Shown here: one piece after another, positions 10,224 to 38,822 of the stretch
How the letters are laid out: the number at the start of each line of letters is the position of its first letter
Numbering within the stretch: the first letter of the stretch is position 1
From: Flavobacteriales bacterium
Lineage (GTDB): Bacteria > Bacteroidota > Bacteroidia > Flavobacteriales_F > PHOS-HE28
Assembly: GCA_016704485.1 (NCBI GenBank)
Contig: JADJAA010000001.1
Coordinates: 1,554,824-1,618,823, forward strand
DNA: 64,000 bases
Direction of reading: 5' to 3'
Position numbers and translations under genes: made by a program
Notes under the pieces: model-generated
Told to the model about the DNA's origin: nothing
What the model saw: only the letters and a program-made list of their open reading frames with translations
The model's database searches: none

Positions 10224-10435
10224 GTCGTGTCGCTCAGTACAGCTGGATCATGCTCTTCCCGGTTGAATTGGTAGTACGGTGTTTCTGGCATCGTGGCGTT
10301 CGTTCAAGTATGAACTTGCCGTATCTCGAATGATCGTTCCGGCCACGCGGCCTTTGATAGTGTTCTTTGAGAAAGTTAGCTAAGAGCTCTACTGCGTCGT
10401 TTTTCTATTGGTAGTGTTCAGCTCTCACCCCGCCA

Positions 10436-10633: not shown

Positions 10634-10663
10634 GGTATTTGATGTTGACCAGCCTTTACCCTG

Positions 10664-21301: not shown

Positions 21302-23375
21302 TTGCGATCGCCATTTTTGGTCGTAGGGCTATGCACGGCGCAACAAGATGGACCAACCGAGGAGGAGCAGCCAACAATTATCACGGCGGAACAACTGCAG
21401 GACTTTAATTCGGTAGTGCCCGGCATGGGTCGACAGATCCCGGGAATATACTTGTCCAACTACGGGCTTCTGTGTTACCACTTTGGGGATGATGGCACAT
21501 TCGCATCGCGCGACTTGAATGATTCCGGTTGGGTCGCAGCCGGTTCATGGTATGCGCCCATCACGTTGCCAAAGGAACAATTGGACACTGCGCAAGCCCT
21601 GTGGGTGCGGTACCATCTTCTCTGCGACAGTTCCCTGCGCGGTAGCCCATTGACACTAAGTTTGGGATCCATTGCCGGTATTGAGATCTTTTTGAACGGC
21701 CATCGGTTGGTGCACGTCCGGGAATTGCCGCCGGTTGTTCATGATCTTGATCAACCAATTTGGGACACGCTGCGGCGCTTTACCCTACCGATCACATTCG
21801 CGTGCCAAGGCGAACCAGAAGTGCTCGCTATTCGGATAGATCCGGCAAGGAATGGAATTCCCTACCCCACTTTGCACTATACGAACTTCGCCTACAACGT
21901 ACAGCTGTCCGCGATGCACTATGGTGTCTTCATCGGGGTCAACGCCATCATCTTTTGCTCGCCTTGGTCCTCTGGTCTTTGGACCGGAATGATAAGCAGT
22001 GGTGGCTACTGGCCCTGCTGGCCTTCGTTACAGGATCAGGGTATGCGCCAAGTTGACCAGTGAGATGGGCTTGTTGGGTTTGCCGTGGCCCACCATCCAG
22101 GTCATTGGCATTATTGACAAGATCCTCCTTCTATGGCCTATGTATGTGCTTATCATGGTCTTGTGGCGCATGCTAGGTGGGTTATCAAGTCGGCGCGCCT
22201 TTTGGCTCACCTTCGGTGTCTTGTTCGTTTCGGCAACCAGCGCTGGCCGCTTGTACTTTTTCGGGAAGATCTCCTGGTCATTTTCGGAGATCACGGGGGA
22301 ATACAGCATAGATGCAGGTTTGTCCGATGATCAGTGGCCACTTTTGGTCGCACTGGTGGTTGGTGCGGTACTGCGCTATTCCATAGCGCTCTGGTTCGCG
22401 ATCGAATTGATCCGACTTGGCATTCGCCTGGTGCGTAAGAAGGGTTTCGGACGTTGGATCGGGGCAGGGGCGCTTGTGTCCAGTCTGTTGAGTTTCCTCT
22501 TGACGTGCTTCGGCCTGGTCACTGAAATACCATCTACGACATGGCTCACACTTTCCGATTATCTCGCCTATGTTGCTGTGCCGGTTTCAGTCGTCATTTA
22601 TCTGGCCGTCACTGCCGCTCAAAACAACAAGCTGGTAGCGCGTCAACGGGATGATCTTGATCGCGAGGTGGACGACCGTACCGCCGAACTTGTAGCGGAG
22701 AAACAAGCGGTGTTGCGCGAGAAAGAACGCAGCGATGAACTACTCCTCAACATCCTGCCATCCGAAGTGGCGGAAGAACTAAAAGCCAACGGTTCGGCAA
22801 AGGCGCGGGACTTCGATCCCGCCACCATCCTGTTCACCGACTTCAAAGGCTTCACGGAGCTATCCGTGCAATTAAGTGCTCAGGATCTGGTGGCCGAGAT
22901 CAATACGTGTTTCGAGGCGTTCGATGGGATAATTTCCCGGTACGGTGTGGAGAAGATCAAGACCATTGGCGATGCTTACATGGCGGCAGGTGGCGTGCCT
23001 GATCCTCTGCGCGGATCACCGGCAGGTGTTGTAGAGGCCGCGTTGGAGATGCAGGAATTCATGGTCAGGTACAAAGCGCAACGAACAGCCTTGAACAAAC
23101 CGGCCTTCGAGATGCGTCTCGGTGTTCACACCGGCCCAGTGGTGGCGGGCATCGTGGGTGTGAAGAAGTTCCAGTACGATATCTGGGGCGACACCGTGAA
23201 CACGGCCAGCCGCATGGAGAGCAATAGCGAAGTGGGCCAAGTAAACATCTCGCAGAGCACCTATGAACTGGTGAAGAACGTGCCGGGACTTGCCTTCACA
23301 TCGCGAGGCAAAATACCAGTGAAAGGGAAAGGAGAGCTGGAAATGTACTTCGTAAAGAGAGGGCCGGTCGCATAG
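21302..23375 (+). pseudogene. 7TMR-DISM-type membrane adenylate/guanylate cyclase, apparently disrupted by frameshift(s)
   Basis: ORF 21302..22063 (frame 2) encodes a 7TMR-DISMED2-like extracellular domain and ends in a TM helix. ORF 21999..23375 (frame 0) encodes the remaining TM helices plus a class III cyclase domain (FTDFKGFTELS...IKTIGDAYMAAGG...GDTVNTASRMES). TM-like peptide also reads through in frame 1 (HHLLLALVLWSLDRNDKQWWLLALLAFVTG) between them. This suggests at least one and probably two frameshifts near 21930-22060. Confidence 0.55.
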
Positions 23376-23476: not shown

Positions 23477-24274
23477 CTATCCACTCCACTTCACGATATC
23501 CGCCACTACCGTCTTGTAGCTCAAGCCACGCAGCCGTTTCACCACCACGATGCGGGTATCTCCGTACTGCTCTGCGCGTTCGACCGACGAGTCAGTTGGT
23601 CTACTTTCCTTGATCCCCAGCCCCGTGCGAAAATGCGACCACCACGTATCGTTGGTGAGCACCACACAGAGTTTCGGCTGTAATTCCTCCAGTTCCATGC
23701 GCACCAGATCCACGCATTCGGGTCGTTGCAGGATGCGCTCGTCCACATCCGGATTGGCCACTTCGCCACGGTTCTGCGGTGCGATCTTGTAGAGGTTGGA
23801 CCATACCAGTTGACGGTTCCATTCCCACGCGTCCTCATTTGTGATGCCGTGCCGAACCTGCATCAGCTTGACCGTGGCCTGCCAGAAGAACGATGACCAA
23901 GCGCGGTAGTTCTTCTCCCGTTCGGTATACCAGGCTTGTTCTTCCGGGCTACACTTGTTCAAGGTAGTGTTCGTCCACAACACGTTCACCCAATCCAACG
24001 GGGAGTGGTCTTTGAAGGGTTCGTTGGAGTAGCGCTTGCTCTCTTCTATGCGGCCCCTCGGTACTGCCTTCGTGAAGTCCCACTCCGGGTGCCAACCACC
24101 CACGGCCTGGCCGTAGACCAGCACATCAACCGGTTCATTCGTTCGCGTACCGATGCTCGGATAGAAGTCTGTGAAGTGGGTGCGTTGCGGAAAGGTGCGC
24201 GCCAGTCGACGTTGAAAGGCTTCCAAGTGTTGCTGGTAGGCGGCGTTATAGGTTGGTGAGAGGGTGCGATACAT
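23477..24274 (-). CDS. Hypothetical protein (cassette flanked by hsdS-terminus repeats)
   Basis: ORF 23477..24451 has its likely start at MYRTLSPTYNAAYQQ (24274), because the region upstream is occupied by repeat B/hsdS. No domain recognised. Confidence 0.45.
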   Translation of the reverse strand: MYRTLSPTYNAAYQQHLEAFQRRLARTFPQRTHFTDFYPSIGTRTNEPVDVLVYGQAVGGWHPEWDFTKAVPRGRIEESKRYSNEPFKDHSPLDWVNVLWTNTTLNKCSPEEQAWYTEREKNYRAWSSFFWQATVKLMQVRHGITNEDAWEWNRQLVWSNLYKIAPQNRGEVANPDVDERILQRPECVDLVRMELEELQPKLCVVLTNDTWWSHFRTGLGIKESRPTDSSVERAEQYGDTRIVVVKRLRGLSYKTVVADIVKWSG

Positions 24275-24302
24275 TATGTCCGTGCTGCGTGATCCTCTTC
24301 CG

Positions 24303-25448
24303 TTAGTTCCCCAACTCCCCCCGGAACGCCCCCTGCAACAAACTCCCGAACAAGCCCTCGCTCTGGTGTAAGCTTGCTGCAATGCAGGTGCGCTGCTTTT
24401 GGATGTTATGGAGTAATGTTCCGAACCGTTCCTGCGCTTTGAGTGGAACAAGTGGAATACGCATTCTTCGGATCTCTTCTGTTGTGATATTCTTGAAGAT
24501 GGCTCCCACCGACTTATCGCTGACCCCTACGGCGAGCATATTCAGATAATGGTAAATGAACCTCAGGTCAAAGCCTTTGTCAAAGTCACGAAATCCTGCA
24601 AATCCATCGTGTATGCAACAGTCGACCATCAGGATCGCTGGCAGGCCTGGCTTCCCACTTACAGCCATCACCAAGTCACCACGTTTCATTGGACGACTGC
24701 GCTGTGAGCCTTCAATCGTGAGTGAATCGATCTGAGGTGTCACATACATCCCATCACGGGTCAAGTCTGCAACCATTAGGCGAGGCACGGGACCTCCAAA
24801 GTATCGCGCATCACCCTGTGGTCTTGGACTGCTCCCACGGACGACCTCACACAACGAACCCAAGTCTACAGTTTCCCACCCCCTCTCATTCCGCACCGGA
24901 TCCCCGAACAGCTCCAAGAACAGGCTCTTGGCAAGTTGGTCGTAAACCGCCAAGGTTCGCCGGTCGTTGGCCACCAGCGCCTGCGCCTTGTCCAAGATCG
25001 CCGCGATGCGACGCTGCGTGGGGAGGGCGGGCGGAGCAAAAGGTAAGCTGCGGATATCTTCTATCTTGAAGCCTTTCACCGTCGCTCCGTTTCCACGCGA
25101 AATGAAGTAATTCTCTTTCGCAAATAGAAAGTAATAGAGATAGGTCTGGTCAACCTTGCCATTTATAACAAGCGCCTTCAGATCCTGATTGAATGCCATC
25201 GGCACGTTCGTGATCGACATGCGCCCAAGAGCCATGCGTGTTGCAATCAATAACGTTCCGGCTGGAACTATCTGTGTCGCACAATTATCTACACCGCGTT
25301 CAGTGATCGACTCGTACGTCTCCGAAATATGCTTTGATGTAAGATCCTTCACCGTAGCCCATGGGACATCACCTTCCCAATAGCCCTCGATATCGCGATT
25401 AGGAGTACCACCACCAAGTATCTGGATATAATTGCCCAGCACGCTCAT
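24303..25448 (-). CDS. hsdS: Type I restriction-modification specificity subunit (HsdS)
   Basis: 381 aa with two TRD-like halves and the conserved terminal ...LLQGAFRGELGN. It overlaps the hsdM stop by 4 nt (25445-25448). Confidence 0.8.
   Translation of the reverse strand: MSVLGNYIQILGGGTPNRDIEGYWEGDVPWATVKDLTSKHISETYESITERGVDNCATQIVPAGTLLIATRMALGRMSITNVPMAFNQDLKALVINGKVDQTYLYYFLFAKENYFISRGNGATVKGFKIEDIRSLPFAPPALPTQRRIAAILDKAQALVANDRRTLAVYDQLAKSLFLELFGDPVRNERGWETVDLGSLCEVVRGSSPRPQGDARYFGGPVPRLMVADLTRDGMYVTPQIDSLTIEGSQRSRPMKRGDLVMAVSGKPGLPAILMVDCCIHDGFAGFRDFDKGFDLRFIYHYLNMLAVGVSDKSVGAIFKNITTEEIRRMRIPLVPLKAQERFGTLLHNIQKQRTCIAASLHQSEGLFGSLLQGAFRGELGN
24314..24385. repeat. Direct repeat copy B; this is the genuine 3' end of hsdS
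   Basis: Sequence actcccccc(gg)aacgccccctgca(a)caaa(ct)cccgaacaag(c)cctcgctc(t)gg(t)gta(a)g... matches 23391-23460. The matching copy A is the orphan fragment above. Confidence 0.7.
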
Positions 25449-27004
25449 TTCAACAACGCCTCCAATTCGTCCAACAATTTCACACGGTCGGCGGCCAATT
25501 GGCGCAGGCCGGGTTCTCCCTTTTTGCCGTTGATCAGCTCGGCGGGCGTGGCATACTTCACTTGCTCGTACACCACCTCCTTGTAGCGGTTTATGCTGAG
25601 GTCCCAGTTGTTGGCCTTCAAGTCCGCAAAGGGCACCAGAAAGCTCTGGTCGGTTCGTGCACGTTTGCTTTCACCTTTCGCACCGAAGCGCGCTAGGATG
25701 TCGGCGATGTTGCTTTTCTCGTGCAGCGTTTTCGCTCCCTTGGTGGGCTCGGTGTATTGGAGTTCAAGCTGTTCTTCGGTGAGTTGCGGTGTGCGCTTAT
25801 CATCCAACGAGAAACCGTCGGCACGCATGTCGTAGAACCACACGTTGTCGGTACCGCCGCTATCGGTCTTGGTAAAGATCAGCACCGCGGTGCTCACCCC
25901 TGCATAGGGTTTGAATACGCCGCCGGGCATGCTGATCACCGCTTGCAATTGCTGGCGTTCGATCAGTTCCTGCCGCAGTTGCTTGTGCGCCTTGCTGCTG
26001 CCGAAGAGCACACCATCGGGCACGATCACAGCTGCGCGGCCACCTGTGCGGAGCATGCGCAGGATCAGACCTAGGAAGAGCAACTCGGTCTTCTTGCTGC
26101 TCACTGTGCGCAAGATCGCAGGGTCCACAGCGTCGTGGTCCAAGCTGCCTTTGAACGGCGGGTTCGCTAACACCAGCGAGAAGCGCTCACTGATGTGGCC
26201 TTGCTCTTTGCTAAGCGCATCCTGCCCGATCAGTTGCGGGTGCTCAATGCCGTGCAACATCATGTTCATGGCACCAATGCGCAACATGCTGGAGTCGAAC
26301 TCGACCCCGGTGAAGAGGTTGGTGTTGTAATGCTCGCGGAACTTCTTCTCGTGGAAGCTGTCCGGGTGCGTGCGCCGTATCTCTTCGCTTGCCGCCACCA
26401 AGAAACCGCACGTGCCGGCACTGGGATCGCAGATGGTATCGGTGGGTTGCGGAACCATCAGTTGCACCATCATGCGGATGATGTGGCGCGGTGTGCGGAA
26501 CTGGCCGTTGCGTCCTGCCGTAGCGATCTTGCCCAGCAGGTATTCATAGAGGTCGCCCTTGGTGTCGCGGTCGGCCATGTCCAGCGCGGCGATCATTTGC
26601 ACGGCGCGGTCCAGCAACCGCGCGGAGGGGATCATGAACGTAGCACCCTTCATGTGCTCACTGAACACGCTGCCCTCGCGCCCCATCTGCTTCATGAAAT
26701 CGAAGACCGTGAGGTTATCGTTCTTCGCATCAGGCCGCGTAAAGAGCGCGAACAATGTATCCGGGTCCTTGTCCTTGAAACTGCTCCACCGCAACGCCTT
26801 GTACTTGGGCGGGTAAATGGGATCCTTGATGGGCCCACCGAGCTTGGCGCTCTGCTTCTCTTTGGTGGTCTGGATCTCATCCATCCGGCGCAAAAAGAGC
26901 AAGTAGGTGATCTGTTCGATAACCGTGAGCGGATTGGCGATGCCGCCAGTCCAGAAGGCCTCCCAGAGGCGGTCGACGTCGGAGCGGAGTGTTCCGTTTA
27001 TCAT
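25445..27004 (-). CDS. hsdM: Type I restriction-modification N6-adenine DNA methyltransferase (HsdM)
   Basis: HsdM_N region present. Motif I ICDPSAGTCGFLVAA and motif IV LANPPFKGS are both intact. Confidence 0.9.
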   Translation of the reverse strand: MINGTLRSDVDRLWEAFWTGGIANPLTVIEQITYLLFLRRMDEIQTTKEKQSAKLGGPIKDPIYPPKYKALRWSSFKDKDPDTLFALFTRPDAKNDNLTVFDFMKQMGREGSVFSEHMKGATFMIPSARLLDRAVQMIAALDMADRDTKGDLYEYLLGKIATAGRNGQFRTPRHIIRMMVQLMVPQPTDTICDPSAGTCGFLVAASEEIRRTHPDSFHEKKFREHYNTNLFTGVEFDSSMLRIGAMNMMLHGIEHPQLIGQDALSKEQGHISERFSLVLANPPFKGSLDHDAVDPAILRTVSSKKTELLFLGLILRMLRTGGRAAVIVPDGVLFGSSKAHKQLRQELIERQQLQAVISMPGGVFKPYAGVSTAVLIFTKTDSGGTDNVWFYDMRADGFSLDDKRTPQLTEEQLELQYTEPTKGAKTLHEKSNIADILARFGAKGESKRARTDQSFLVPFADLKANNWDLSINRYKEVVYEQVKYATPAELINGKKGEPGLRQLAADRVKLLDELEALLK

Positions 27005-27017
27005 GGGGTGAAGATGG

Positions 27018-28226
27018 TCAATGTTTGGTGATGGTGGTAAATTCCCATTTAGACTGTCCGTTCAGTTCGACTTGTTTGACTTGGCCGGAAACGAGGTCGC
27101 CATCCACAAGGCTGTGTAGTTTTATCAGATCCTTGTTGATGTAGGCATCGCCAGCATGGGCGTAGGTGTTATCGTTGCGTTTCTTGACCACGACGCGGCC
27201 CAGTTCTTTGGTATCACCGTCGAGTAGGGGAACTCCGTCGCTGCCTACCGCTTCCTCGTGTAGCCAGGTTCGGTTCGCCTTGGGGTCTGGATACTTTGCT
27301 GCGAACTTCTTGAACCAGACCAACACGTCCATGAGCTGGAACACGATGGTGCTCAAGAGGTAAGGCGTTACACCATGCTCGTGTAGTGCTTCGAGATTGT
27401 CCAAGCTGTAATTGGAATCCTCAGCGGTCTCGTCCGCATGCGAGCTTTCGCTGGTTACCCGCAGAATATTGTCCAGTGCATCGGCAACGATCCGGGGCAT
27501 CATCGGGCGGTCACACTTCAAGGCCACCGTGGCCGAAGAACGGCTCGGATAAAGCACGCGCTCGCCCCGCAGGAACAGTGCTGACAAGCGTTGGTTGACC
27601 CTCGGCTTTACAAGGACATCGGGTAGTAACCCGTGCCGATGCGCGGCATAGAAGAAGTGCTCCACTACCTGACGCAAAGGATTCATGAATAAGCGATCAC
27701 TACCGGACTTGTCCCCGCGATCCACAAAGCGCAATGCGTCCATGAACATAGGGTCGGCAACGGCATCCAAATAAGGAACTTGGAGCACTGCGAACACATC
27801 GGCATACCTATCACGAAGCGCTTGCTCGTTGCTTCGATCAACAAGGCTCTGTAGTTCCGCGTATAGGTCCTTCTCGTTCCCTTTCAAGTACCGCCGCTCA
27901 TCACGACGGTTCTTTGTTGCACCTTCGTCAAAGCCGGTATTGATCACATACGGAATATGAATGTTCGCTCCTTTCCATTGGTCCAGATCCCTGCGGGCTT
28001 CATGCAGGTGGTCGATGTCCTCGGTGGGTGAATGTTCATCCACCTGCCCTCTGGCATCGAGGATCAAGGCTTTGAAACGCTTTTCTCGGATCGGTTCCTT
28101 AGCCTCGGCCCAGGTCTTGAACCAAGTCACTTCGAAACCGTGCGCGACCGCCTTAGCAATTTGGGCTTTGGCGTATGCTTCATCGTCATCTACTAAGGCG
28201 ATCGGAACCAGGTCAAACAGTGTCAT
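27018..28226 (-). CDS. Receiver (REC)-like domain protein with uncharacterised C-terminal output domain
   Basis: Likely start MTLFDLVPIALVDDDEAYAKA (acidic pair after beta-1). Putative phospho-acceptor Asp in KALILDARG. Thr in IPYVINTGF. The C-terminal ~300 aa are unknown and contain an Rx4H motif (RQVVEH). The start overlaps the stop of the upstream kinase gene by ~14 nt, and the gene ends 13 nt before the hsdM start. Confidence 0.55.
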   Translation of the reverse strand: MTLFDLVPIALVDDDEAYAKAQIAKAVAHGFEVTWFKTWAEAKEPIREKRFKALILDARGQVDEHSPTEDIDHLHEARRDLDQWKGANIHIPYVINTGFDEGATKNRRDERRYLKGNEKDLYAELQSLVDRSNEQALRDRYADVFAVLQVPYLDAVADPMFMDALRFVDRGDKSGSDRLFMNPLRQVVEHFFYAAHRHGLLPDVLVKPRVNQRLSALFLRGERVLYPSRSSATVALKCDRPMMPRIVADALDNILRVTSESSHADETAEDSNYSLDNLEALHEHGVTPYLLSTIVFQLMDVLVWFKKFAAKYPDPKANRTWLHEEAVGSDGVPLLDGDTKELGRVVVKKRNDNTYAHAGDAYINKDLIKLHSLVDGDLVSGQVKQVELNGQSKWEFTTITKH

Positions 28227-30909
28227 GCGAAATGGGAAGGTCAATGGTGAAGTGGACAAACATTTGAGTGGATACAGCTTCCCGGTCAAATGGTATCCAA
28301 TGATTCTCGTCTATACGTTGATCGCGTTCAAAACTCGATCGGTACTTGTCATCGCTCACTGGCAGGTTACCCGACACGAACTTTCCGCCGTGGTTGGCAA
28401 TGATCCGATCGATCAGATAGCCGCCTATGCCATTGCCCTTTTTCATGTCCAGACGCTTGCCAAAGGTGATGAAGTGCTCATGGGTAAAACCTTCCGGAAA
28501 GGGTTTGCCGTTGTTCTCGATGGTGATAACCAATCGCGTTCGTTGAGGTTCAATACGCGTTGATACCCTCACCCGTACGACCAATTGTTCCTGATCCGAT
28601 CGAAGGCCGTGTTTGGCCATATTGATGAACAAGTTCTGGATGACAAGTGCGAACTGTTGTTGATCGACATGTGCGATCACTCCTTCAGTGGTTTCTAGTC
28701 CAGCTTCACATTCGAAAATGACCATAAGCGCTTTCACCTGGTCGGCAAGTCCGCGCAATTCCGTTCGGAACAGTCGACGAAGGTCGATGGGCACTGGTCT
28801 TAGACTCTCCTTATCTGATCGGATCACCGCATTGATCAATTGAAAGAGACCGCGCATGCGATCCAATCCACTATTCATTGTATCTAGGGCGGTGGTGATC
28901 GTAGACTTTTCAACTGGGCCCAAACTGTTGAGTACTGCATGGATCTCGGCCATGGGTTGCTCCAGAAGCGCCACCACCGGGCGGAAGCTGTGCTCCACTG
29001 CACCAAGGATCTGCCACTCATCAGTGGAGAGGCCATGCTGTTTTTCCTGCCTAGCGATCTCCTCCTTCTTCGCCAATAGAATGGATTCCTTCCGTTCGCG
29101 AACAATGCGCAGTTGATCCTTGAGTTCGGGTAAGCGAACCCGAATTCTCAGAACGTCTGCTTTGGCTATGAAAGCGATCGTACTTCCTTGGTGGTATGCG
29201 TCGAGCTGATCTTGGATCGTGGGCGTTCTTAGTTCTGTTGCGAGGTATTCGGTATTAGCACGAGCCGCATCCACACGGAACATGAATACATTGCTTCCCA
29301 CGGCGATCGGTCCATCTACCGGGTCGAATAAGGTCGGCTTCAACTTTCCGCCCACCCGTGCAAGTAGCAGTGCTGGCACATCCAATCTCTTCAGTCCCTT
29401 CTTGACAGAACCGGTTTCATGTTGCCCATCACGCGCCGTGCGCCTCATGTCGAGGACATCCGTTGAAAGCTCGGAGACCTGGAAGAGCGGCAGACCGGCG
29501 AGGTCGCCCATGGAGAGGATATCGTCCGAAAGCACGGTGCCGAGTTCAACCACGTCCACACCATCCGCTTCGGCCACGATATGGGCTTGTTGAAGCAGGC
29601 TGGCAAACCGACTCATGCTCCAAGACACATGCTCGTCGGAACGGATGTCAGAAACCTTCACGTCCAAAACACCTTGTAAGGTATAAGTGCTATCCAACGC
29701 CTGCAGCACGCTGCTAACATCGAGTGTTATTTCGGATCGCGTCTTGTATGTGACATGCAAACCCGCATCCACGAATCGGACAGGCGCATTCGTTGGCCGT
29801 GATCCATTCAAAACAATGATCGAGGTCTTTATCCCTGAGTAGGGTGTGAAGGATCCTGCTGGCAACGAGATCACTGCTTCGAGCAACCCTAGGTCAAGAA
29901 TCTGTTTGCGTAGATGCGCTCTGTTGATGCCGAACAACATACTCTCGGGCACAAGGATCACCGCCTTCCCCTCGGGTGCAAGCCGCTTGAGGATCTGGTT
30001 GATCGCTATCTCATAGGGTTCTATCGCGCGTAGCCTTCCTTCCTCTTTCACTCGACCACCGAAAGGTGGTGCACTAATGCAATGCGTATACTTCTTGTTG
30101 GAAGCACCGGGTGCTGATGGTTCGTTCAAGGCGGCGTTCAGGTCTGCCCCGAGAATACGTGCTTGCAGCGTATTGAAGAAGAATGCGAATTGGTTGAAGA
30201 ATACCGCGTCGAGCTTTACAGAATGTGGCGCACGCGCTGCGAGCACTGCTGGCAATACGCTCGCATCCGCAGCTGGGTCGAATACCTCTTCCACGTCTCC
30301 GAGCAGCCGCGCCATAAGCATTGCAACGGACCATGGCGTACAGAACTGGCCCATGTGACTATCGCGCAAGAGGAGGCTACGCATTTCTTCCACATACTCG
30401 ATCGGTTCCAAACCCGCTGATGCCATGAGAAAAAGCTCAGTTTGTACTGGGCTTGTTGCCAGTGCGCCGCCATTTTTAAGAAGATACGAATGCTGCTCCC
30501 CAAAGTCCTTAAACTCCTCTGCCAATTCATTCAAGGTGGACCATAATCCTTCTCCTCTTTGAGCGATCGTAGGCAACACTCCTGCTGGGCGCACGGCCAA
30601 GGCATAAATGAGTGCCAGCTCCAAGCCAACGGTCTGCGCGAAGGGCATGGATCGTAGCGCATTGCGCAATTCCCATGCGTGGGCCTGAAAAAAACGGACC
30701 CGGTTCAACATACGTTCTGGATCCAACTGTAAACTACCGTCATCGGATATACTAACACGCCCACCAGACAACTCCACCTCAGCAAGCAAGCTCGATGGCT
30801 CAACGTCCTTCTGGCTCAATAAGACCTTGACGATATTACAGACACCCTCCAAAGTATCCGAGCCGTTCTTCAGGCGAAGGGCACATATTATGGCGTCTAT
30901 CAGTTTCAT
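28213..30909 (-). CDS. Fusion protein: degenerate N6-adenine MTase-like domain + HsdS-like TRD + histidine kinase (HisKA + HATPase_c)
   Basis: MTase fold present: GQFCTPWSVAMLMARLLG...VFDPAADASVL (the glycine-rich SAM loop is degenerate) and ISAPPFGG (motif IV with Asn/Asp replaced by Ala). TRD-like stretch: VGSNVFMFRVD...STIAFIAKADVLRIRVRLP. H-box: AVEHSFRPVVALL. N box: VIQNLFINMAKHG. G boxes: IENNGKPFP and GNGIGGYLIDRIIANHGG. Confidence 0.75.
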   Translation of the reverse strand: MKLIDAIICALRLKNGSDTLEGVCNIVKVLLSQKDVEPSSLLAEVELSGGRVSISDDGSLQLDPERMLNRVRFFQAHAWELRNALRSMPFAQTVGLELALIYALAVRPAGVLPTIAQRGEGLWSTLNELAEEFKDFGEQHSYLLKNGGALATSPVQTELFLMASAGLEPIEYVEEMRSLLLRDSHMGQFCTPWSVAMLMARLLGDVEEVFDPAADASVLPAVLAARAPHSVKLDAVFFNQFAFFFNTLQARILGADLNAALNEPSAPGASNKKYTHCISAPPFGGRVKEEGRLRAIEPYEIAINQILKRLAPEGKAVILVPESMLFGINRAHLRKQILDLGLLEAVISLPAGSFTPYSGIKTSIIVLNGSRPTNAPVRFVDAGLHVTYKTRSEITLDVSSVLQALDSTYTLQGVLDVKVSDIRSDEHVSWSMSRFASLLQQAHIVAEADGVDVVELGTVLSDDILSMGDLAGLPLFQVSELSTDVLDMRRTARDGQHETGSVKKGLKRLDVPALLLARVGGKLKPTLFDPVDGPIAVGSNVFMFRVDAARANTEYLATELRTPTIQDQLDAYHQGSTIAFIAKADVLRIRVRLPELKDQLRIVRERKESILLAKKEEIARQEKQHGLSTDEWQILGAVEHSFRPVVALLEQPMAEIHAVLNSLGPVEKSTITTALDTMNSGLDRMRGLFQLINAVIRSDKESLRPVPIDLRRLFRTELRGLADQVKALMVIFECEAGLETTEGVIAHVDQQQFALVIQNLFINMAKHGLRSDQEQLVVRVRVSTRIEPQRTRLVITIENNGKPFPEGFTHEHFITFGKRLDMKKGNGIGGYLIDRIIANHGGKFVSGNLPVSDDKYRSSFERDQRIDENHWIPFDREAVSTQMFVHFTIDLPISHDTV

Positions 30910-30971
30910 GCAACGGGGGTCAAAGTAAGCGGTGGAGGGTTATGGTGTAGATGTGTTTGCAGGTTATGATC

Positions 30972-32234
30972 TCAAGCGACTTTCTCCAGTCGGTTTGTCG
31001 GCAGAAGTTGGGCAGCCATACGATCCATGACCTCCCATTCCGGACGTGTGTACGAGTTGCTCTCCGTGACCACCGGGATCCTGAATTCGCCCATGGCATC
31101 CTCGCGCATAGCCCATTGATCCTTCTGGTCGTAGAGCTTTGTTCCGGGCAAAAGCATCAGCGGCCAAGCCTTAACGTCCCTGCAGCCTTTGGATAAGAGG
31201 TGGTCGATACTACGCTGGAAACTTTCCAAGGTCTGTCCGGGCAACCCGTAGATCAAACTCACTTCGAAAGGAATCTCGCGCTCCACAAGCTGTTCAATAG
31301 CAGCATCGACAAGATCCATCCGATTGGCGCGGTCAATTTTCTTGGACACTGCATGGTCCGTGGTCTGCAACCCGAACTCCAAGTGGAAGTTGGCTTGCGT
31401 ACAAAGGTCCAGGAATGCATTAACCTGTTGGCCTCGGATATTCTCAAAGCGCGATTGCAGGGTGAAGGTGGAGCGCGTACGGAGTTGAACGATCTCTTGC
31501 ATTATATCCAGGCACTCCTTCCCAGCGTTGAAGATGGGGTCGAGTATGTTCACGCGTTGCACACGATGTTCAGTGAGAAATGCTAACTCTTTAAAGACTT
31601 TATCCAGTGGGTGCTTATGCACGCGGTGAGTGGCGAGGTCGCGGTGTGCGCAAAATGAACACCGGTAGGGGCAGCCGCGTTTGGTCTCCAACCGTACCAT
31701 ACCGGCTCCCATTGGTACAGGCAATTCGCCAGTGAGATACGGTGAGGCCAGTTGTGTGAAGTCCACTGGTACGTTCACGAACACGGGTTCGTCGGCATCG
31801 AGATGGTCCGTCAATTCGGCAAAGGCTTGTTCGGCTTGTCCGGAGATGAAGACCTGGCAATCCGGATACCGACGCAGCAATTCTGCTCGGTTCCCGTAGG
31901 TGACTTGATACCCTCCGAGGACCACCTTGCCAAGGAACCCAAGACGACGAAGCAATGCGATGATGCCATTGGTGAGGTACTCGTTCCAGATGTAAGCCGA
32001 GAGCGCGATGGCGTTAAAGCGGCTCACATCAAGCGCCGCGAGTTGCACTTCGAATTGCTCGGGTGTGGCCGTGCCGCCGTGTTCGAGCATGTTGATCGAG
32101 AGGTGTTCCACGTGCATCTGTCCACGCAGCCGTTCATTACTCCGTTGGTGTGCCAAGAGAGATGCGATCGCCAAGGGCTTGGTGATCTCACCGTGCCGGA
32201 TCAGGTCGAAGGATATGATGAGCGTGTTCGTCAT
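30972..32234 (-). CDS. B12-binding-domain radical SAM protein
   Basis: N-terminal cobalamin-binding-like Rossmann region followed by a radical SAM cluster motif (MVRLETKRGCPYRCSFCAHR). The ~420 aa are counted from the probable start MTNTLIISFDL. Confidence 0.8.
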   Translation of the reverse strand: MTNTLIISFDLIRHGEITKPLAIASLLAHQRSNERLRGQMHVEHLSINMLEHGGTATPEQFEVQLAALDVSRFNAIALSAYIWNEYLTNGIIALLRRLGFLGKVVLGGYQVTYGNRAELLRRYPDCQVFISGQAEQAFAELTDHLDADEPVFVNVPVDFTQLASPYLTGELPVPMGAGMVRLETKRGCPYRCSFCAHRDLATHRVHKHPLDKVFKELAFLTEHRVQRVNILDPIFNAGKECLDIMQEIVQLRTRSTFTLQSRFENIRGQQVNAFLDLCTQANFHLEFGLQTTDHAVSKKIDRANRMDLVDAAIEQLVEREIPFEVSLIYGLPGQTLESFQRSIDHLLSKGCRDVKAWPLMLLPGTKLYDQKDQWAMREDAMGEFRIPVVTESNSYTRPEWEVMDRMAAQLLPTNRLEKVA

Positions 32235-32343
32235 TGGTCCTCGCCACCAAGGGTCTATATGGTTGGATAATCGCTCAACCAACGAACTTCCCTATGGCAA
32301 CGGACCAAAAGTCCCGGTCACCTGTGCAGTCTATCTGCACAGT

Positions 32344-33354
32344 TCATTTCGCGTAGTTCTTCTTCATTTCCATCACCCGCAAAAGCAGCGCTTGGCGTAG
32401 TTCTTCCGGCGCAATAACCTGTAGCCCTTCTCCATAAGATAACAACAAGGCTTGTAGCTCGTAGTTCAGCTTCACTTCTAAACGAATAGTCGCGCCGCCG
32501 TCTTTTCTCTTCACTACTTTCTGCGAACCGTGTATAGGCTTTGACTCCAAATAAGGCCAAAGTCTATCCGTGACTTGGATCTTGACAACAACAGCTTCTT
32601 GATCCGCAGGTACACTTACACCAACAACATCCTCAAAATACTCCGTGAAATCCACCTCATCGTTCGGTATGTATTTCACCTTACTGGGTACAATATCCCG
32701 GATCCGGTCCAAGGCCATATTGACAATACGCCCCTCTTCCTCAAGACCAAAAACAAACCAACGGTTGTTATACTGTTTCAAGTAATACGGATGGAGCAAC
32801 ACAATGCTAGGCGCATTTTGCTTGAAGCCTTGGTAAGATATTTCCAAGGCTTGCTCATTGATGATCGAATGAAATAATGTGGTAATGTGCTCGGCACCTT
32901 TCAAATACGGGTTCTGCTCAAACTCGATGACCTGAGCAGCCCCTTGTTTCAGCCCGAAACCAGCTTCCAACCGAGCAACTAATTCATCTACCCATTCAAA
33001 CTGCGGCATGCCCTTAAATCGGCTCAGCGTTAAGAGCGCCTCCTTCAATTGTTCCGCTTCGCTCTCGTTCAGCGGTCGCTTGTTGATAGAGAATTCAAGG
33101 TCACTGTACCGGTAAAAAGTACGCTTTCCGTCTTTGTGTTTCTCCAGCGGGATAGCCCATCCTTGTTCGCTCTCCATGTACTTGATGTCCTCGAAAACTT
33201 GGCGGCGGCTGATGCTTGCACCTGCTCCGGTGAACTCCTCCAACGCCATGTTGCAAGCTTCCATCAGGTCTTCGATGAAATACTCGCGCCCACGGTTCGC
33301 AAAGCAACGGTCCATTGTCTGATAGCGAATAAGGGCATTCTTATTTACGGGCAT
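32344..33354 (-). CDS. WYL-domain transcriptional regulator (wHTH-WYL; BrxR/CapW-like)
   Basis: The ~336-aa size and architecture match BrxR/CapW regulators. The WYL-like core is LLHPYYLKQYNNRWFVFG, with an N-terminal HTH region. It sits at the head of a same-strand defence gene block. Confidence 0.65.
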   Translation of the reverse strand: MPVNKNALIRYQTMDRCFANRGREYFIEDLMEACNMALEEFTGAGASISRRQVFEDIKYMESEQGWAIPLEKHKDGKRTFYRYSDLEFSINKRPLNESEAEQLKEALLTLSRFKGMPQFEWVDELVARLEAGFGLKQGAAQVIEFEQNPYLKGAEHITTLFHSIINEQALEISYQGFKQNAPSIVLLHPYYLKQYNNRWFVFGLEEEGRIVNMALDRIRDIVPSKVKYIPNDEVDFTEYFEDVVGVSVPADQEAVVVKIQVTDRLWPYLESKPIHGSQKVVKRKDGGATIRLEVKLNYELQALLLSYGEGLQVIAPEELRQALLLRVMEMKKNYAK

Positions 33355-33983: not shown

Positions 33984-34206
33984 GGTCCGCTATCTATACC
34001 ATACTACTATAGGGCACATTGAACCTTAGTCTGGACTTCCGCCTTCGGAACTGCATTCGCTGCCAGATGATCATTGGGGTGCAATTATCCCAAACCTATA
34101 CCATATTACTATAGGGGGCATAAGCCTCCATCTCCGGCTCGTGAACTTTGGAGGTAAAGATGGTGTGATTTGACCTACTACCTATACCATATTACTATAT
34201 GGTGCT
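33984..34206. promoter_or_regulatory. Three dispersed copies of a ~21-bp dyad-symmetric site (cCTATAccatattacTATAGGg) spaced ~90-110 bp apart
   Basis: Copies at ~33986-34008, ~34094-34116 and ~34182-34204. The 6-bp inverted arms CCTATA/TATAGG are operator-like. Confidence 0.5.
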
Positions 34207-34287
34207 TTGCACCGTGCGCCTCGTGGTGCACACTTGTGGTTCAGAACTGCTTCATGTAGGCCTGGTGCAAGAGGCTGTATTTGTTCC

Positions 34288-34750
34288 ATTGGTACATGGC
34301 CTTGTCCCGTAAGTACATGTACTTGTGCCTTTGGTACATGTACTTGTCCCGTGAGTACATGTACTTGTCCCGTAAGTGCATGTACTTGTCCCGTGAGTAC
34401 ATGTACTTGTCCCGTGAGTACATGTACTTGTCCCGTAAGTACATGTACTTGTCCCGTAAGTACATGTACTTGTGCCGTTGGTACATGTACTTGTCCCGTA
34501 AGTACATGTACTTGTGCCGTTGGTACATGTACTTGTGCCGTTGGTACATGTACTTGTGCCGTGAGTACATGTACTTGTGCCGTGAGTACATGTACTTGTC
34601 CCGTAAGTACATGTACTTGTGCCGTTGGTACATGTACTTGTCCCGTAAGTACATGTACTTGTCCCGTAAGTACATGTACTTGTCCCGTAAGTACATGTAC
34701 TTGTCCCGTAAGTACATGTACTTGTGCCGTGAGTATGTGTACCTGTACCA
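34288..34750. repeat. 21-bp tandem repeat array (~22 units) built around the perfect palindrome GTACATGTAC
   Basis: Units are cccgt(a/g)agtacatgtacttgt and gccgttggtacatgtacttgt. All six frames are open across the array because the period is 21. Confidence 0.9.
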
Positions 34751-35352
34751 TGTGTAACGATACTTCAAGTTACAGTACACTTACTTGATACAGAGGTGCT
34801 TATGCCATTGCGTGGGGTATGCCTGCTTGTAACACGGGGACTGATAACCCACTCAGCGTCAGGCGTAAAGAGTGATCCGAACGTTGCCCGTGCTGCATAA
34901 CCCATCCTCGAGCGGCCGCGTGCGGGCTACAGTAAATGAAAAGAACCCCGGCCAGTTGTGCTAGGATTCTTCCGTTCGGGGATGGTGTATGAGTGGCAGG
35001 GTCGTCTGCTATGCGGCAGACTGACCCTGAGCGGGTTTAAAAATGCGCCGCTGCACTACGCAATGGGTAGCGGATGCGCAGTTCGCTTACCTGGTGGACC
35101 CCGCATCGCCCGAAGCGGAACTTCCGCACAAAGCAACCCTCTTGGTGCACTGCCCGGAACGCGGCGAGATCCGGCTGAATATATTGTCCAACGGTTCCAT
35201 CGCCGAACTACAGTTCACGGACTGCTATGAACCGATGTCCAGAACCACCAGCATAGCAGAAGAATCCGATCCGATGTCTCCTTTTACCGTGGTACATCGG
35301 CATTGGGATCACGGCAGTGAGGTGTAGGTGTGCCCCTCATTTGAATGGAACG

Positions 35353-35457: not shown

Positions 35458-36426
35458 TCAAGCCTTTATGAACTCGTTCACAAAAGCTTGTACAAATTGC
35501 TTGGCTAAAGCAGAGTAAGGCTTGGTCGGCTCTGTCAGTTGCATCAGCAATTCCACCTCTTGCTCGATCATCGCCTCAATTGTTCCTGTGGTCTTTTTTA
35601 CAAGTTTGTTCAATGTACGTGTTGGTACTTTATCCTTGAATGATCTGATATCCTTACCGATCTCGTTCGATAGGTCGATCAATTTCAAGATCATCTCAAA
35701 ACGCATTTTTAATCGCAGAATGTATTCTCTGCGCATATCGACCAACCCCTTTCTATTCAAGCCGTAGATCTCAATGGAACGGATCGCTTTTTGCCAATGG
35801 ATCTCCCTTTTTATCACGTTCTCTGATGAGGGCAAAGCAATGGCCTTCATTACTCCTGAGTCATCGTATTCCAAGTATTTGCTAGGTTCGTCCGTACAAG
35901 GGTTCAACAACAAACATTGTTCGCCTGAAATATCGAACAGCGGCGCACTCGCACGCATTGTTTCATCAAACAATGGAAAAGAGTTTGCCTTTCCTTGTTT
36001 TAGCTTTTTCCATTGATAGGACCCATCTATGGGGTTCTTTCGATACACATATTGATAGCGCGCTCTATTGCAGTCTATGCATGAAGGGAGTAGATTATCC
36101 CATTCCATTGCGAGCTTAGCATATACACCTACTTTAGTTTCGGTCTTGTTCGTCAATTCTACGAGCACTTCGGATTTGGGTCTGAAATGCTCAATATCCA
36201 GCGGTTGTGTGCGCGTGTAAGGTGATTCGCAATATGCACATTTACCATGGAACATAAGCTCCAACAACTCAGGCACTTTTTCGTGCTTGTAAAGCTTGAA
36301 ATCGGGCTTTAGGTCCTTGTGGAAATCGCTTCGAAGCCATGCTTCCACCTCTTCCTTTTCTTTGTTGAAGGCATCCGAGGTTATGGTAAGTGCCTGCGGG
36401 GCATTTACGCGTTTTCGTTTGATCAT
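35458..36426 (-). CDS. HNH endonuclease of the TIGR02646/PtuB type (Septu-like nuclease component)
   Basis: HNH motifs GKCAYCESPYTRTQPLDIEHFRPKS...WDNLLPSCIDCNRARYQ. 322 aa. Lies immediately downstream of the ATPase gene. Confidence 0.7.
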   Translation of the reverse strand: MIKRKRVNAPQALTITSDAFNKEKEEVEAWLRSDFHKDLKPDFKLYKHEKVPELLELMFHGKCAYCESPYTRTQPLDIEHFRPKSEVLVELTNKTETKVGVYAKLAMEWDNLLPSCIDCNRARYQYVYRKNPIDGSYQWKKLKQGKANSFPLFDETMRASAPLFDISGEQCLLLNPCTDEPSKYLEYDDSGVMKAIALPSSENVIKREIHWQKAIRSIEIYGLNRKGLVDMRREYILRLKMRFEMILKLIDLSNEIGKDIRSFKDKVPTRTLNKLVKKTTGTIEAMIEQEVELLMQLTEPTKPYSALAKQFVQAFVNEFIKA

Positions 36427-36434
36427 TGAAGAGC

Positions 36435-38822
36435 TCAGTTGTTCAGGCGCCAGGAAGCATCCGTTAAAGCCTCTATTATCTTCTTAGTGGGTTTGGGAAA
36501 TCGTACGTTGGTCGGTGACTTCATCAAGTGCTCATCGATCAGCCTCAACAAGTACATATCACGCCGACTACTACCGAGAATGCTCTTTCTGTTGAGTCGT
36601 TCATGTAGATCCTTCAGTTGTGCCTTACCCGAATCATCTAACGCCGATGCCTTCGCTATGAGGTTGTAATAGCGGTCAAAGAATTCAGCTGTGCGCGGGT
36701 CCAGGGTTGTACTTAATCCGAATAATTCTGAGGTAAGGAGCTGGTCGGAACGTAAGCCAGCCGGCGAATCCATGTCGTCGTGTACTGTAGCCATGGAAGG
36801 GTCGTCCACATTTCTCTTGACCAATGCTACTTCACCAGCACCCAGCCCATGCAGGCATAGTGGCTCATGGGTGCTCGCGATGAATTGGATAAGCGGAAAT
36901 GTCTGTTCCAATCTTCTTAAGATGCTCATGCGCCAACTCGGGTGCAGATGTGCACCGATCTCATCAATTAGTACCACGCCTCTAATTTGATGCGTATCCG
37001 TTGGATTGCCTGCCATTATATCACAGGCTAGACCAACCATGGTCTTGTAACCCGCACTAAAATGCTTTAAGCGGGTGAATGACCCGTTCACGAAAAGCCC
37101 GAATTGTGTTGGCTTGTTGTTTTCAAATTGAAAGTCGAGACGTGTAGAATTATCTGTAAGATCCAGCAGGTCCTTCAAGGCCACACAAACATCGAAGAAC
37201 TGCTGTTGATTCTTTACCACTATGGTACGTAACCACTCTTCGGCATCTACCATGGGATAGAACGGGTCAAAGAGGTTCTGGATGTTCTTATTCACTCCCC
37301 TTTTCTCTAACAGATCAGAACTCTTGCCTTTTTGCGGCAGCAATCGAACAGGCCCGTATGCACGAAGAAATATATTCGGGACCTCACCTTGCTCCCATTT
37401 TAATCCGCTATTCGTGATGTTCACTACGATAGGATCTGTTCGCTGATGAAAGTAGACTTCAATTCTACCTGACGTAGCTCCACGCCTCAAGCTAGTGCTG
37501 AAATGCTCCTTCATCTTACTCAAGGCTTTCTTGCCGCTGAGTATCAATGCAAGTGCTTCGAGCAGCGAACTTTTTCCTGACCCGTTCTCACCCAGCAGCA
37601 TTTTCCAACCGCTGTGTCGAAAGGTTTCCTGTTGTGGAGATTCGGAGCCGTTTTCGTCGATCGTCTTCCGGCGTTCCTCTTGATTGCCTCCCGCTGTTTC
37701 CGTGTTCAAGTCTAAGTTCAGTTCACGTTCTGTGTCTACTAGGTCTTTCGGGCGTTCTTGGGGGATCAAGAATACAGCCTTCTCGAAGATCCTGTAATTC
37801 TCAACTATTAATTTGCTAATGGTCAGCGCTTGATGCGCGACTTTCTCCTTGGACGGCGCATTCTCTGTGGCGGTTTTCGGAGGAGTTCTTTGCGCCTCGG
37901 AACTCGTCTTCTTTGGAGACTCCTTATTAGCGCGTGTTGATCCCGGTTTCGTACGCGCTCCGGTCTCAGCTTCTAATAAGGACCCAGGCTTATTGAGCCC
38001 TTTGCTTATTGTTTCGACGTGCAGGCCGTCGCCTTGAATGAGGATTTTTAGTCCGAAGTCCTCCTTAAGAACATGGTTACTCAGATTCCGCATTGGACTT
38101 TGCGGGTCTATCAGTCCTTTCAAGAAGTGATCTTCTTCTACGGTTCGAGGTAGTTTCTCACCCTTTTTTTTAAGAACCAGAGACTTTGTCAAGTCGCGAA
38201 CTCGGTGAACCATATCACTCCTTCTATTGATGGCGGATTTCCGGTTCAGGTCCAGAGTTTCAATGGTCACCTCGGCTCGTCGCTTCTGCATGTGCCCTAA
38301 AGTGGAACGAGGCTTTATCATTCCATTAGATGAATAGTCGAAGTACTCCTCCGGATCGTCTTCATAAGGATTCAGCAAATACGGTTCTTCTTTCTCGAGC
38401 GCACTCCCCCGAGGCTGGTCATCAGCATGCTTGATAGGAACACGTTTTCCGGCGATGGGAAACTGTGCTCCCTTTGCAAAACTGCACTCATTGCATATGG
38501 GTAGCATGTTCTGCCAATCAAACAATAGCCACCAATAGTGGTCGCCAACCTGCTCATTTGGTTCCACTTTTACCGGTCGGTACAGGTCGATGTGTACCGT
38601 CTTTTCATTCAAGGGTGCTTCGCAATACGCACATGCATTATTGGAGGTTTCCAGAAGATCTCGGTTTACATCACGAGAATACTGTGGAGCCTTGTGTCTT
38701 ATCTGGCTTCGCTTCTCTAAAGGTTGCGCATAAAACTTCCGAAGTTCATTGAACGTCTTCTCTCCTTCCGTACTGTACTGTAGGTCTGGTGGAGATACTT
38801 TACTTCGGTTCAGTTTTCTCAT
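36435..38822 (-). CDS. AAA_21/ABC-type ATPase (PtuA-like) with an additional N-terminal HNH-like domain
   Basis: N-terminal HNH-like region NACAYCEAPLNEKTVHIDLYRPVK...WQNMLPICNECSFAKG. A low-complexity linker is followed by Walker A MLLGENGSGKSSLLEAL, Walker B VVLIDEIGAHLHP and FIASTHEP. Confidence 0.7.
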   Translation of the reverse strand: MRKLNRSKVSPPDLQYSTEGEKTFNELRKFYAQPLEKRSQIRHKAPQYSRDVNRDLLETSNNACAYCEAPLNEKTVHIDLYRPVKVEPNEQVGDHYWWLLFDWQNMLPICNECSFAKGAQFPIAGKRVPIKHADDQPRGSALEKEEPYLLNPYEDDPEEYFDYSSNGMIKPRSTLGHMQKRRAEVTIETLDLNRKSAINRRSDMVHRVRDLTKSLVLKKKGEKLPRTVEEDHFLKGLIDPQSPMRNLSNHVLKEDFGLKILIQGDGLHVETISKGLNKPGSLLEAETGARTKPGSTRANKESPKKTSSEAQRTPPKTATENAPSKEKVAHQALTISKLIVENYRIFEKAVFLIPQERPKDLVDTERELNLDLNTETAGGNQEERRKTIDENGSESPQQETFRHSGWKMLLGENGSGKSSLLEALALILSGKKALSKMKEHFSTSLRRGATSGRIEVYFHQRTDPIVVNITNSGLKWEQGEVPNIFLRAYGPVRLLPQKGKSSDLLEKRGVNKNIQNLFDPFYPMVDAEEWLRTIVVKNQQQFFDVCVALKDLLDLTDNSTRLDFQFENNKPTQFGLFVNGSFTRLKHFSAGYKTMVGLACDIMAGNPTDTHQIRGVVLIDEIGAHLHPSWRMSILRRLEQTFPLIQFIASTHEPLCLHGLGAGEVALVKRNVDDPSMATVHDDMDSPAGLRSDQLLTSELFGLSTTLDPRTAEFFDRYYNLIAKASALDDSGKAQLKDLHERLNRKSILGSSRRDMYLLRLIDEHLMKSPTNVRFPKPTKKIIEALTDASWRLNN

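Follow-up and report, generated by a model that had tools for sequence, protein, structure and literature searches.

A two-component pair is built into a Type I restriction-modification (R-M) locus of a Flavobacteriales bacterium, and its sensor is predicted, from its domains and motifs, to be a soluble histidine kinase whose input region is a catalytically dead paralog of the methyltransferase HsdM joined to one target recognition domain (TRD) of the HsdS type. The locus lies in a stretch of 64,000 nucleotides (nt), hereafter the window (contig JADJAA010000001.1, positions 1,554,824-1,618,823 of the forward strand, assembly GCA_016704485.1), and coordinates are positions in this window unless another locus is named. 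The kinase (898 amino acids (aa); 28213-30909, minus strand) matches both Pfam N6_Mtase (5.7e-15) and HATPase_c (1.7e-8), and its partner, a response regulator of 402 aa (27018-28226, minus strand), combines a receiver, a helical domain and an S1/cold-shock domain. We take the module to be an accessory two-component system living inside Type I R-M loci of Bacteroidota. A full-text literature search (with subscription-only papers outside its scope) found no description of this architecture, nor did PADLOC v2, Pfam or NCBIfam contain one, and an earlier reading of the window made from the letters alone (the sequence-only reading) cited none either.

The genes of the pair are tightly packed against each other and against hsdM. 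The stop codon of the kinase gene (TGA, 28215-28213) and the ATG of the regulator gene (28226) overlap by 14 nt, and the end of the regulator gene (27018) is separated by a 13-nt gap from the start of hsdM (27004) on the same strand, so that both junctions measured as the sequence-only reading had described them. The regulator starts at ATG 28226, not at an upstream TTG, and is 402 aa long, as judged from an identical 402-aa database protein and from the N-termini of its homologs. On sequence grounds the kinase and the regulator are real, conserved genes rather than chance open reading frames (ORFs), and they are predicted to be translationally coupled; the 14-nt overlap and 13-nt spacing indicate that kinase, regulator and hsdM lie on one transcript. 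A scan for sigma-70 promoters and terminators returned fewer sites than shuffled sequence, with a model that is ill-suited to Bacteroidota promoters.

The sensor kinase carries a dead methyltransferase and a single TRD

The 898-aa protein opens with a winged-helix-like region and a helical domain resembling the N-terminal domain of HsdM (aa 1-180; 30370-30909), which are followed by a pseudo-HsdM methyltransferase fold (aa 181-400; 29710-30369) that keeps motif X (GQFCTP) and has DPAADAS at motif I and APPF at motif IV. Next come one HsdS-like TRD (aa 456-595; 29125-29544), where HsdS has two, and an HsdS-type conserved-region helix leading into the DHp hairpin (aa 596-700; 28810-29124) with the phospho-acceptor H640 (codon 28990-28992); the CA domain with its N, G1 and G2 boxes (aa 701-898; 28216-28809), which accounts for the HATPase_c match, completes the protein. 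All of these segments are on the minus strand. We infer that the HsdS-type helix (aa 596-625) continues into the DHp helix that bears H640. When the kinase was compared with the adjacent HsdM by BLASTP, GQFCTP was aligned with GQFRTP, DPAADASVL with DPSAGTCGF, and APPF with NPPF, and PADLOC profiles of Type I specificity subunits matched aa 472-640 (best 4e-8). The HsdM fold is therefore present, as are the TRD fold and profile, and the composition proposed by the sequence-only reading is borne out by these matches together with that to N6_Mtase.

The loss of the methyltransferase motifs is not peculiar to this genome. Among 19 close homologs of the kinase (33-65% identity), the D-P-x-A-D core of motif I is conserved and the glycine-rich loop of a SAM-binding motif I (D/E/N-P-x-x-G-x-G-x-F) is found in none, while motif IV reads x-P-P-(F/L), with A, I, V, M or K before the prolines and never Asn or Asp. 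Four distant homologs have NPAGGIL and NLPF, NPAAGFS and VPPF, NPHAGEA and D-PF, and DPACGNA and VLPF at motifs I and IV, respectively, all of them defective in ways other than that of the close family, and an intact motif IV, (N/D)PP(F/Y/W), occurs in none of the 19 close and four distant proteins. The kinase residues follow the opposite pattern: H640 (within the H-box AVEHSFRPV), N763, H767, N799, G801, G827, G829 and G842 are invariant in the 19 close homologs, and the boxes are retained in the four distant ones. A phospho-accepting histidine in a DHp domain and the N, G1 and G2 boxes of a CA domain, the features expected of a two-component sensor, are thus in place at the sequence level, with Pfam HisKA giving no match to the 898-aa kinase. 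Because the pattern recurs throughout the 19 close and four distant homologs, losing methyltransferase chemistry while retaining kinase chemistry is a trait of the family and not the decay of one gene in one genome; what the earlier reading had seen in a single protein, degenerate motifs I and IV beside an intact histidine kinase, extends to the family as a whole. The distant kinase of locus L017 scores 259 bits against N6_Mtase and keeps DPACG. We also note, at 6513-9996 of locus L014, that the distant kinase carries an N-terminal HARE-HTH domain (Pfam) and that a DUF7255 gene comes before it.

Database entries name these kinases 'N-6 DNA methylase' or 'type I restriction-modification system subunit M', whereas their regulators appear as 'hypothetical' or 'cold shock protein'. 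Since the kinases carry methylase labels, methylome and defence surveys that count them as methyltransferases would overcount, and recognition of the family would put the present annotation right.

The regulator has a conserved receiver and a helical domain with a candidate active site

The regulator consists of a receiver (aa 1-127; 27846-28226) with the phospho-acceptor D57 (codon 28056-28058), an unannotated helical output domain (aa 128-322; 27261-27845), possibly HEPN-like, in which R185-x3-E189, S262-H263 and D300 are conserved, and an S1/cold-shock-like OB-fold domain (aa 323-402; 27021-27260), again all on the minus strand. The sequence-only reading had recognised the receiver, and its residues are strongly conserved: none of D13, D14, D15, D57, T97 and K115 varies among 22 close homologs, and across 100 diverse members of the regulator family D57 and K115 are invariant and D14 nearly so. 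The acidic pair, the phospho-acceptor Asp, the Thr/Ser and the Lys that define a receiver are all present, and Pfam Response_reg matches 16 of the 22 close homologs.

The output region was previously described as one uncharacterised stretch of about 300 residues. It is in fact two domains, helical and then S1/cold-shock, and the description as uncharacterised still fits the helical part, for which Pfam, PADLOC and PDB sequences yielded no match. The C-terminal domain is matched by S1CSD-TOTE-2 (best 2.6e-6) and Rho_RNA_bind (3.5e-4); S1CSD-TOTE-2 matches 19 of the 22 close regulators, OB_RNB matches appear in the wider family, and the AF2 model of the regulator has an all-beta C-terminus. For the helical domain, a profile found 801 cluster representatives at E <= 1e-3 among 1.84 billion proteins, an unannotated output-domain family of about 800 clusters whose members are nearly all 300 or 400 aa long with the middle domain at a constant position. 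The same profile had only chance matches among PDB sequences (ribosomal protein uS8, E about 1), and Pfam and PADLOC scans of 100 regulator-family members brought out no consistent family for the middle domain. In one metagenomic protein (P0143, 975 aa), which may be a fused variant, the domain occupies aa 702-888 and the 700 residues on its N-terminal side have no Pfam match.

R185 and H263 of the helical domain never vary across 100 diverse members, and E189, D300, Y289 and W304 hardly do. R185, E189, H263 and D300 form a clear candidate active site, and, as far as conservation can tell, the strictly conserved R-x3-E, H and D look more like a catalytic set than like a binding surface. The residues that conservation singles out are not those of the Rx4H HEPN-like motif to which the sequence-only reading had pointed. 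That motif (R185...H190) is present in the window protein, but H190 is replaced by Y, K, S or Q in homologs, and R256-x6-H263 is confined to the subfamily of the window, the arginine being N, S, H, T or K elsewhere. What is left of the HEPN suggestion is a weak profile alignment: with hhalign, the middle domain aligns over 107 columns with DUF4145, the HEPN domain of HsdR N-termini, and H263 falls on the HEPN histidine (P = 0.013, control 0.27, probability only 3%). Assignment of the regulator output as an RNase is accordingly a lead, not a result. HsdR of this locus has an N-terminal DUF4145 of the HEPN family at aa 26-106, and the locus may hold two HEPN-like domains, one in HsdR and one in the middle of the regulator.

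The pair accompanies Type I systems in 13 distinct loci

The neighbourhoods of homologs fell into 13 distinct loci: the window, L001 (= L007, L015), L003, L004 (with the near-copy L009), L005, L006, L010 (= L008, L011), L012, the P0018 locus, L013, L014, L016 (Psychroflexus curvus, GCA_020164585) and L017 (plasmid pFA12 of Fulvitalea axinellae DSM 100852, NZ_AP025326), the last four of which were reached through regulators or kinases that are only 22-24% identical. In every one of the 13, a pseudo-methyltransferase kinase is followed by a member of the regulator family, hsdM and hsdS lie within 10 kb, and hsdR is on the same contig in each locus where this could be checked. The linkage to hsdM and hsdS that the sequence-only reading had proposed to look for thus holds even for the most divergent pairs. 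Fulvitalea axinellae DSM 100852 is a culture-collection strain, and a Psychroflexus curvus assembly also carries the pair.

Around this constant core the arrangement is variable. A WYL gene lies upstream in most loci, and genes for a radical SAM enzyme and a DUF2130 protein are frequent and dispensable. The pair is on the opposite strand to hsdM and hsdS in L013 and L017, and in L017 it is convergent with an hsdM-hsdS-AAA-hypothetical-hsdR series. In L016, hsdM is called as two fragments, with a serine recombinase between it and the pair, and in L014 a DUF2130 gene and a PDDEXK_13/REase-ARP nuclease gene separate the regulator from hsdM. Scans of genome and metagenome contigs with single peptide patterns found one and two loci only, and understate the size of the family in comparison with the profile search. 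Likewise, tblastn of the regulator against a plasmid collection gave no match at E <= 1e-3, yet a profile HMM detects the member on the Fulvitalea plasmid.

The sensor TRD does not follow the neighbouring HsdS

Kinases of the close family accompany two unrelated kinds of Type I system, the first with a 519-aa HsdM and an EcoEI-type HsdR and the second with an HsdM of ~800 aa and a T1R_D3-type HsdR, and the block of radical SAM, kinase and regulator genes occurs with both. The HsdM proteins of the two families are ~22% identical, the HsdS proteins of the loci compared are as far apart (~22%), and across them the kinase TRD is 69% (window versus L010) or 86% (L004 versus L012) identical. Indeed, the TRD is the most conserved domain of the kinase (51% mean identity), and bona fide HsdS proteins are 31-39% identical in loci whose HsdM proteins are 78-87% identical. 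We also considered whether the kinase shares its TRD with the neighbouring HsdS, and this was rejected, as there is no BLAST similarity between them in the window and weak generic similarity elsewhere.

Because the TRD fails to change along with HsdS, the kinase does not appear to be a reader of its neighbour's methylation. These comparisons therefore speak against the proposal, made in the sequence-only reading, of a sensor for the modification state that the adjacent system establishes, and the module does not need to share the sequence specificity of its neighbour.

Comparison with known systems

The M2S1 core of Type I enzymes, half-size HsdS proteins and fused methyltransferase-TRD proteins (Type IIG, Type ISP) are built of similar parts, and the kinase differs from all of them in that motifs I and IV have been lost, the TRD is conserved rather than hypervariable, and the conserved-region helix leads into a kinase and not into a second TRD. 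The pair also resembles PrrC of the EcoprrI locus (and RloC) in being encoded by accessory genes inside a Type I hsd locus that are proposed to act when restriction is compromised. The RNase domain of PrrC is classed as HEPN (PMC3710099) and its catalytic triad is Arg320-Glu324-His356 (PMC1484252); R185-x3-E189...H263 of the regulator matches this Arg-x3-Glu...His constellation, a resemblance at the level of the motif only. Control of PrrC lies with an ABC-type NTPase domain and with direct EcoprrI contact and involves neither a kinase nor a receiver, whereas here there is a His-Asp relay with a dead HsdM/HsdS sensor. The regulator lacks the N-terminal ABC-type NTPase of PrrC and RloC and has a receiver instead, and homology between the regulator and these proteins is not established.

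Detocs (DtcA/DtcB/DtcC), in which defence depends on phospho-His and phospho-Asp residues (10.1101/2023.01.24.525353), likewise joins a histidine kinase to a response regulator with an effector output that is not DNA-binding. However, Detocs has TPR sensing, a stand-alone buffer receiver (DtcB), an effector that is mostly a PNP ATP-nucleosidase and no tie to R-M, in contrast to the pseudo-methylase and TRD sensor, the absence of a buffer receiver and the helical plus S1 effector seen here. Consistent with this, the best PADLOC matches of the kinase are to methyltransferase and specificity-subunit models, the regulator has none, and there is no stand-alone receiver in any cassette.

Two further comparisons are more limited. 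MADS (mad1-8) is also a multi-gene system around a Type I-like methylase and specificity subunit, and PADLOC mad2 matches the methyltransferase part of the kinase at 7.3e-13, a generic methyltransferase similarity. The MADS detection model requires MAD6-8 (10.1101/2023.03.30.534895), and membership was rejected, as no scanned protein matched MAD6-8 and the similarity shown by the methylase and S proteins was of the MAD2 and MAD5 types only. WYL/WCX regulators of the BrxR type are described for BREX and other defence islands (PMC9122601), and here the likeness is limited to the first gene of the cassette (WYL/WCX) and does not concern the kinase-regulator pair.

It is already known that Type I loci host second-line effectors (PrrC) and that a His-Asp relay can serve defence (Detocs), and the present family would join the two.

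A possible checkpoint behind restriction

The explanation that we favour, and to which we would give an even chance of being right, is that the pair acts as a defence checkpoint behind restriction, with an RNA-directed effector that would form a second line in the manner of PrrC; by analogy such a role is plausible. Histidine kinases dimerise through the DHp domain. A kinase dimer, with its two M-like lobes, its pair of TRDs and its central bundle of helices, would rebuild an M2S1-like core, and if the HsdS-type helix runs into the DHp helix as we infer, it would resemble an M2S1 core in which the central coiled coil has become a signalling helix. The helices would move when a ligand occupied the DNA groove, altering the balance between kinase and phosphatase activities; such a ligand might be DNA that carries some fixed feature or an anti-restriction protein that mimics DNA and is directed at Type I cores. 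Once D57 was phosphorylated, the HEPN-like and S1 output of the regulator would be turned onto RNA and, as a second line after restriction, growth would stop or the infection would be abortive. Supporting context is provided by the WYL-headed cassette, by Tiamat, Uzume, GmrSD and RES-Xre genes within these loci, and by Detocs as a precedent for a His-Asp relay in defence.

More tentatively, the kinase could be a decoy of the Type I methylase core, its dead M2S1-like groove capturing DNA mimics of the Ocr/ArdA type or invading DNA and the relay unleashing the HEPN-like RNase. If this were true, a dead copy of the very target that it guards would serve as guard of the R-M system, and would do so in hundreds of lineages and in a form that is portable between Type I families. 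If correct, sensing by a kinase through a pseudo-enzyme copy of the restriction complex would be a new principle, and the pair offers a tractable way to study how cells detect failure or evasion of restriction.

Several observations weigh against the checkpoint and its decoy variant. All contexts come from one phylum, Bacteroidota, and shared ancestry inflates the linkage count. There are regulator variants of ~300 aa without the S1 domain, a PADLOC scan of 100 regulator-family members (E <= 1) detected no PrrC, RloC or HEPN-family model, and the arginine at the canonical HEPN position (Rx4-6H) is not conserved, so that the assignment as an effector, with its hhalign probability of 3%, is weak. 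The radical SAM gene has no role in the model, and the basis for the decoy consists only of the conservation of the TRD and the swapping between Type I families.

Somewhat doubtful, in our view, is the alternative that the pair is a housekeeping regulator of R-M, in which the kinase senses unmethylated or hemimethylated chromosome or the state of the complex and the S1 domain binds RNA or single-stranded DNA and tunes hsdR and hsdM or restriction alleviation, which would protect the host after acquisition of the locus or DNA damage. The place of the pair at the head of the hsdM-hsdS operon and its translational coupling are what such a role would predict; the S1/cold-shock domain is a nucleic-acid binder and not itself catalytic, the regulator matches no toxin family, and Type I systems are known to need restriction alleviation (PMC11109961). 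However, the TRD takes no account of what the partner HsdS recognises and unrelated Type I families share the module, and for these reasons the kinase cannot read partner-methylated sites. A WYL transcription factor is already available for regulation, and the conserved R-x3-E, H and D look catalytic. Furthermore, HsdR orthologs (46-50% identity) are found in many named Bacteroidota, as against ~20 close homologs of the kinase, so most such HsdR systems presumably work without the pair.

It is unlikely that the kinase instead reads a modification other than the m6A of its neighbour, possibly one made by the adjacent B12 radical SAM enzyme, the three genes forming a self-contained modification-surveillance system with the dead pocket as the reader. 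In the close family the radical SAM gene directly precedes that of the kinase and its product is 75-85% identical; the gene travels with the kinase between Type I families, the protein matches a PADLOC defence candidate, and the pseudo-methyltransferase keeps motif X and the PPF of motif IV, residues that contact the flipped base in active N6-adenine methyltransferases. Yet five loci (L005, L013, L014, L016 and L017) have the pair without the radical SAM gene, this class B radical SAM clade is not known to modify DNA, and its best NCBIfam similarities, far below cut-off, point to small-molecule C- and P-methyltransferases.

Quite improbable is a co-location that reflects the clustering of genes in defence islands and nothing more, with the pair independent or an ordinary environmental two-component system. 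Type I loci of this kind do dock many defence genes between hsdS and hsdR, and the pair is on the opposite strand from hsdM and hsdS in two loci, but without a Type I link it would be difficult to account for a sensor descended from HsdM and HsdS, the pair stays beside hsdM and hsdS in 13 of 13 loci while the other nested genes vary, and the overlap and spacing in the window indicate one transcript. Finally, GHKL ATPases are known in R-M contexts, HisKA does not match and the L017 homolog has its high N6_Mtase score and DPACG, but it is highly improbable that the protein is a MORC/MutL-like GHKL ATPase or a methyltransferase that is divergent and still active, in place of a phosphorelay kinase. 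Alignment revealed degenerate motifs and not the intact SAM and NPPF motifs that the sequence-only reading had named as the contrary outcome.

Other genes of the locus

Seven genes on the minus strand are assigned to a single Type I R-M locus (23477-33354), in the order WYL/WCX regulator, B12 radical SAM enzyme, kinase, response regulator, hsdM, hsdS and a 265-aa hypothetical protein, beyond which lie a nucleotidyl cyclase gene on the opposite strand and then hsdR. The WYL/WCX transcriptional regulator (32344-33354, minus; Pfam WYL 3.3e-10, WCX 1.7e-11) heads the cassette, and its orthologs, 56-68% identical, are upstream of the kinase in L001, L004, L005 and L006; a WYL gene also stands ahead of the distant pair in each of L013, L014 and L016. 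The radical SAM enzyme (30972-32282, minus; Pfam Radical_SAM 3.3e-13, B12-binding 6.7e-4) probably starts at ATG 32234, which gives a product of 420 aa, and its orthologs lie directly upstream of the kinase in L001, L003, L004, L006 and L010. It matches PADLOC PDC-M51A over nearly its full length (6.6e-117) and is the only member of the cassette (pair, WYL and radical SAM) that PADLOC includes, as a candidate. The other PDC-M51 models have no match to the kinase, regulator, WYL, DUF2130 or small proteins, and no mention of PDC-M51 was found in full-text literature.

HsdM (25445-27004, minus; Pfam N6_Mtase 1.6e-57, HsdM_N 3.8e-12; PADLOC MTase_I 1.7e-168) is an intact methyltransferase with DPSAGTCGF and NPPF, and its gene overlaps by 4 nt that of HsdS (24303-25448, minus), a specificity subunit with two TRDs (Pfam Methylase_S 2.7e-31 in two stretches; PADLOC Specificity_I 1.9e-66). 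The 265-aa conserved hypothetical protein (23477-24274, minus) has a 59% identical counterpart at the equivalent place in L001. The class III nucleotidyl cyclase (21999-23375, plus) matches Guanylate_cyc at 7e-56 and, weakly, Pycsar PycC at 1e-15, and its N-terminal half has no domain match. HsdR (17621-21079, minus; PADLOC REase_I 2.7e-160; Pfam ResIII, EcoEI_R_C and DUF4145), of the EcoAI/EcoEI type, ends the locus; an identical protein is recorded in an NCBI Flavobacteriales metagenome-assembled genome.

L005 has an hsdR ortholog, 82% identical, in the equivalent position. The contigs of L001, L009 and the P0018 locus also carry hsdR orthologs, and the one in L015 comes straight after TmtA and two Xre-RES pairs. 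Between hsdS and hsdR the nested genes differ by locus (Tiamat, Uzume, RES-Xre, GmrSD, Fic or a cyclase), so the gap is a docking site for varied defence genes and the kinase-regulator pair is constant. A helicase of ~1820 aa that follows hsdS in several loci, where hsdR had seemed to be missing, was considered as a component of the system and rejected, as it is Tiamat TmtA with hsdR beyond it. An 89-aa ORF in L004 (12055-12324 in that locus), upstream of two Xre-RES pairs and Tiamat, is 64% identical to a 28-residue stretch of the window HsdR and may be a remnant left when genes were inserted between hsdS and hsdR.

Other defence features of the window

No tRNA marks an edge of the island in the window, and further defence genes flank the locus. 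Immediately downstream of hsdR is a gene for a 604-aa protein of the GmrSD_N family (15720-17534, minus; PADLOC HEC-05 1.7e-30). In a 1610-aa protein (10664-15496, minus), a DpdF/PsyrT-like SF2 helicase and a UvrD SF1 helicase are joined into one chain, near a PsyrA/DprA-like gene (8955-10223, plus) and a gene for a RecQ-like helicase with a phosphoribosyltransferase tail (6850-9003, plus), and the region as a whole (6850-15496) resembles an enlarged module of the PsyrTA type. On the other side of the cassette, 34182-34788 is of low complexity, with long overlapping ORFs on both strands and below-threshold matches to beta-roll and antifreeze repeats, and is probably a repeat protein or non-coding repeat DNA. 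A Septu pair follows (35458-38822, minus), in which the 795-aa PtuA has an extra N-terminal region (aa 1-240) that matches PtuB profiles, in addition to the separate PtuB gene.

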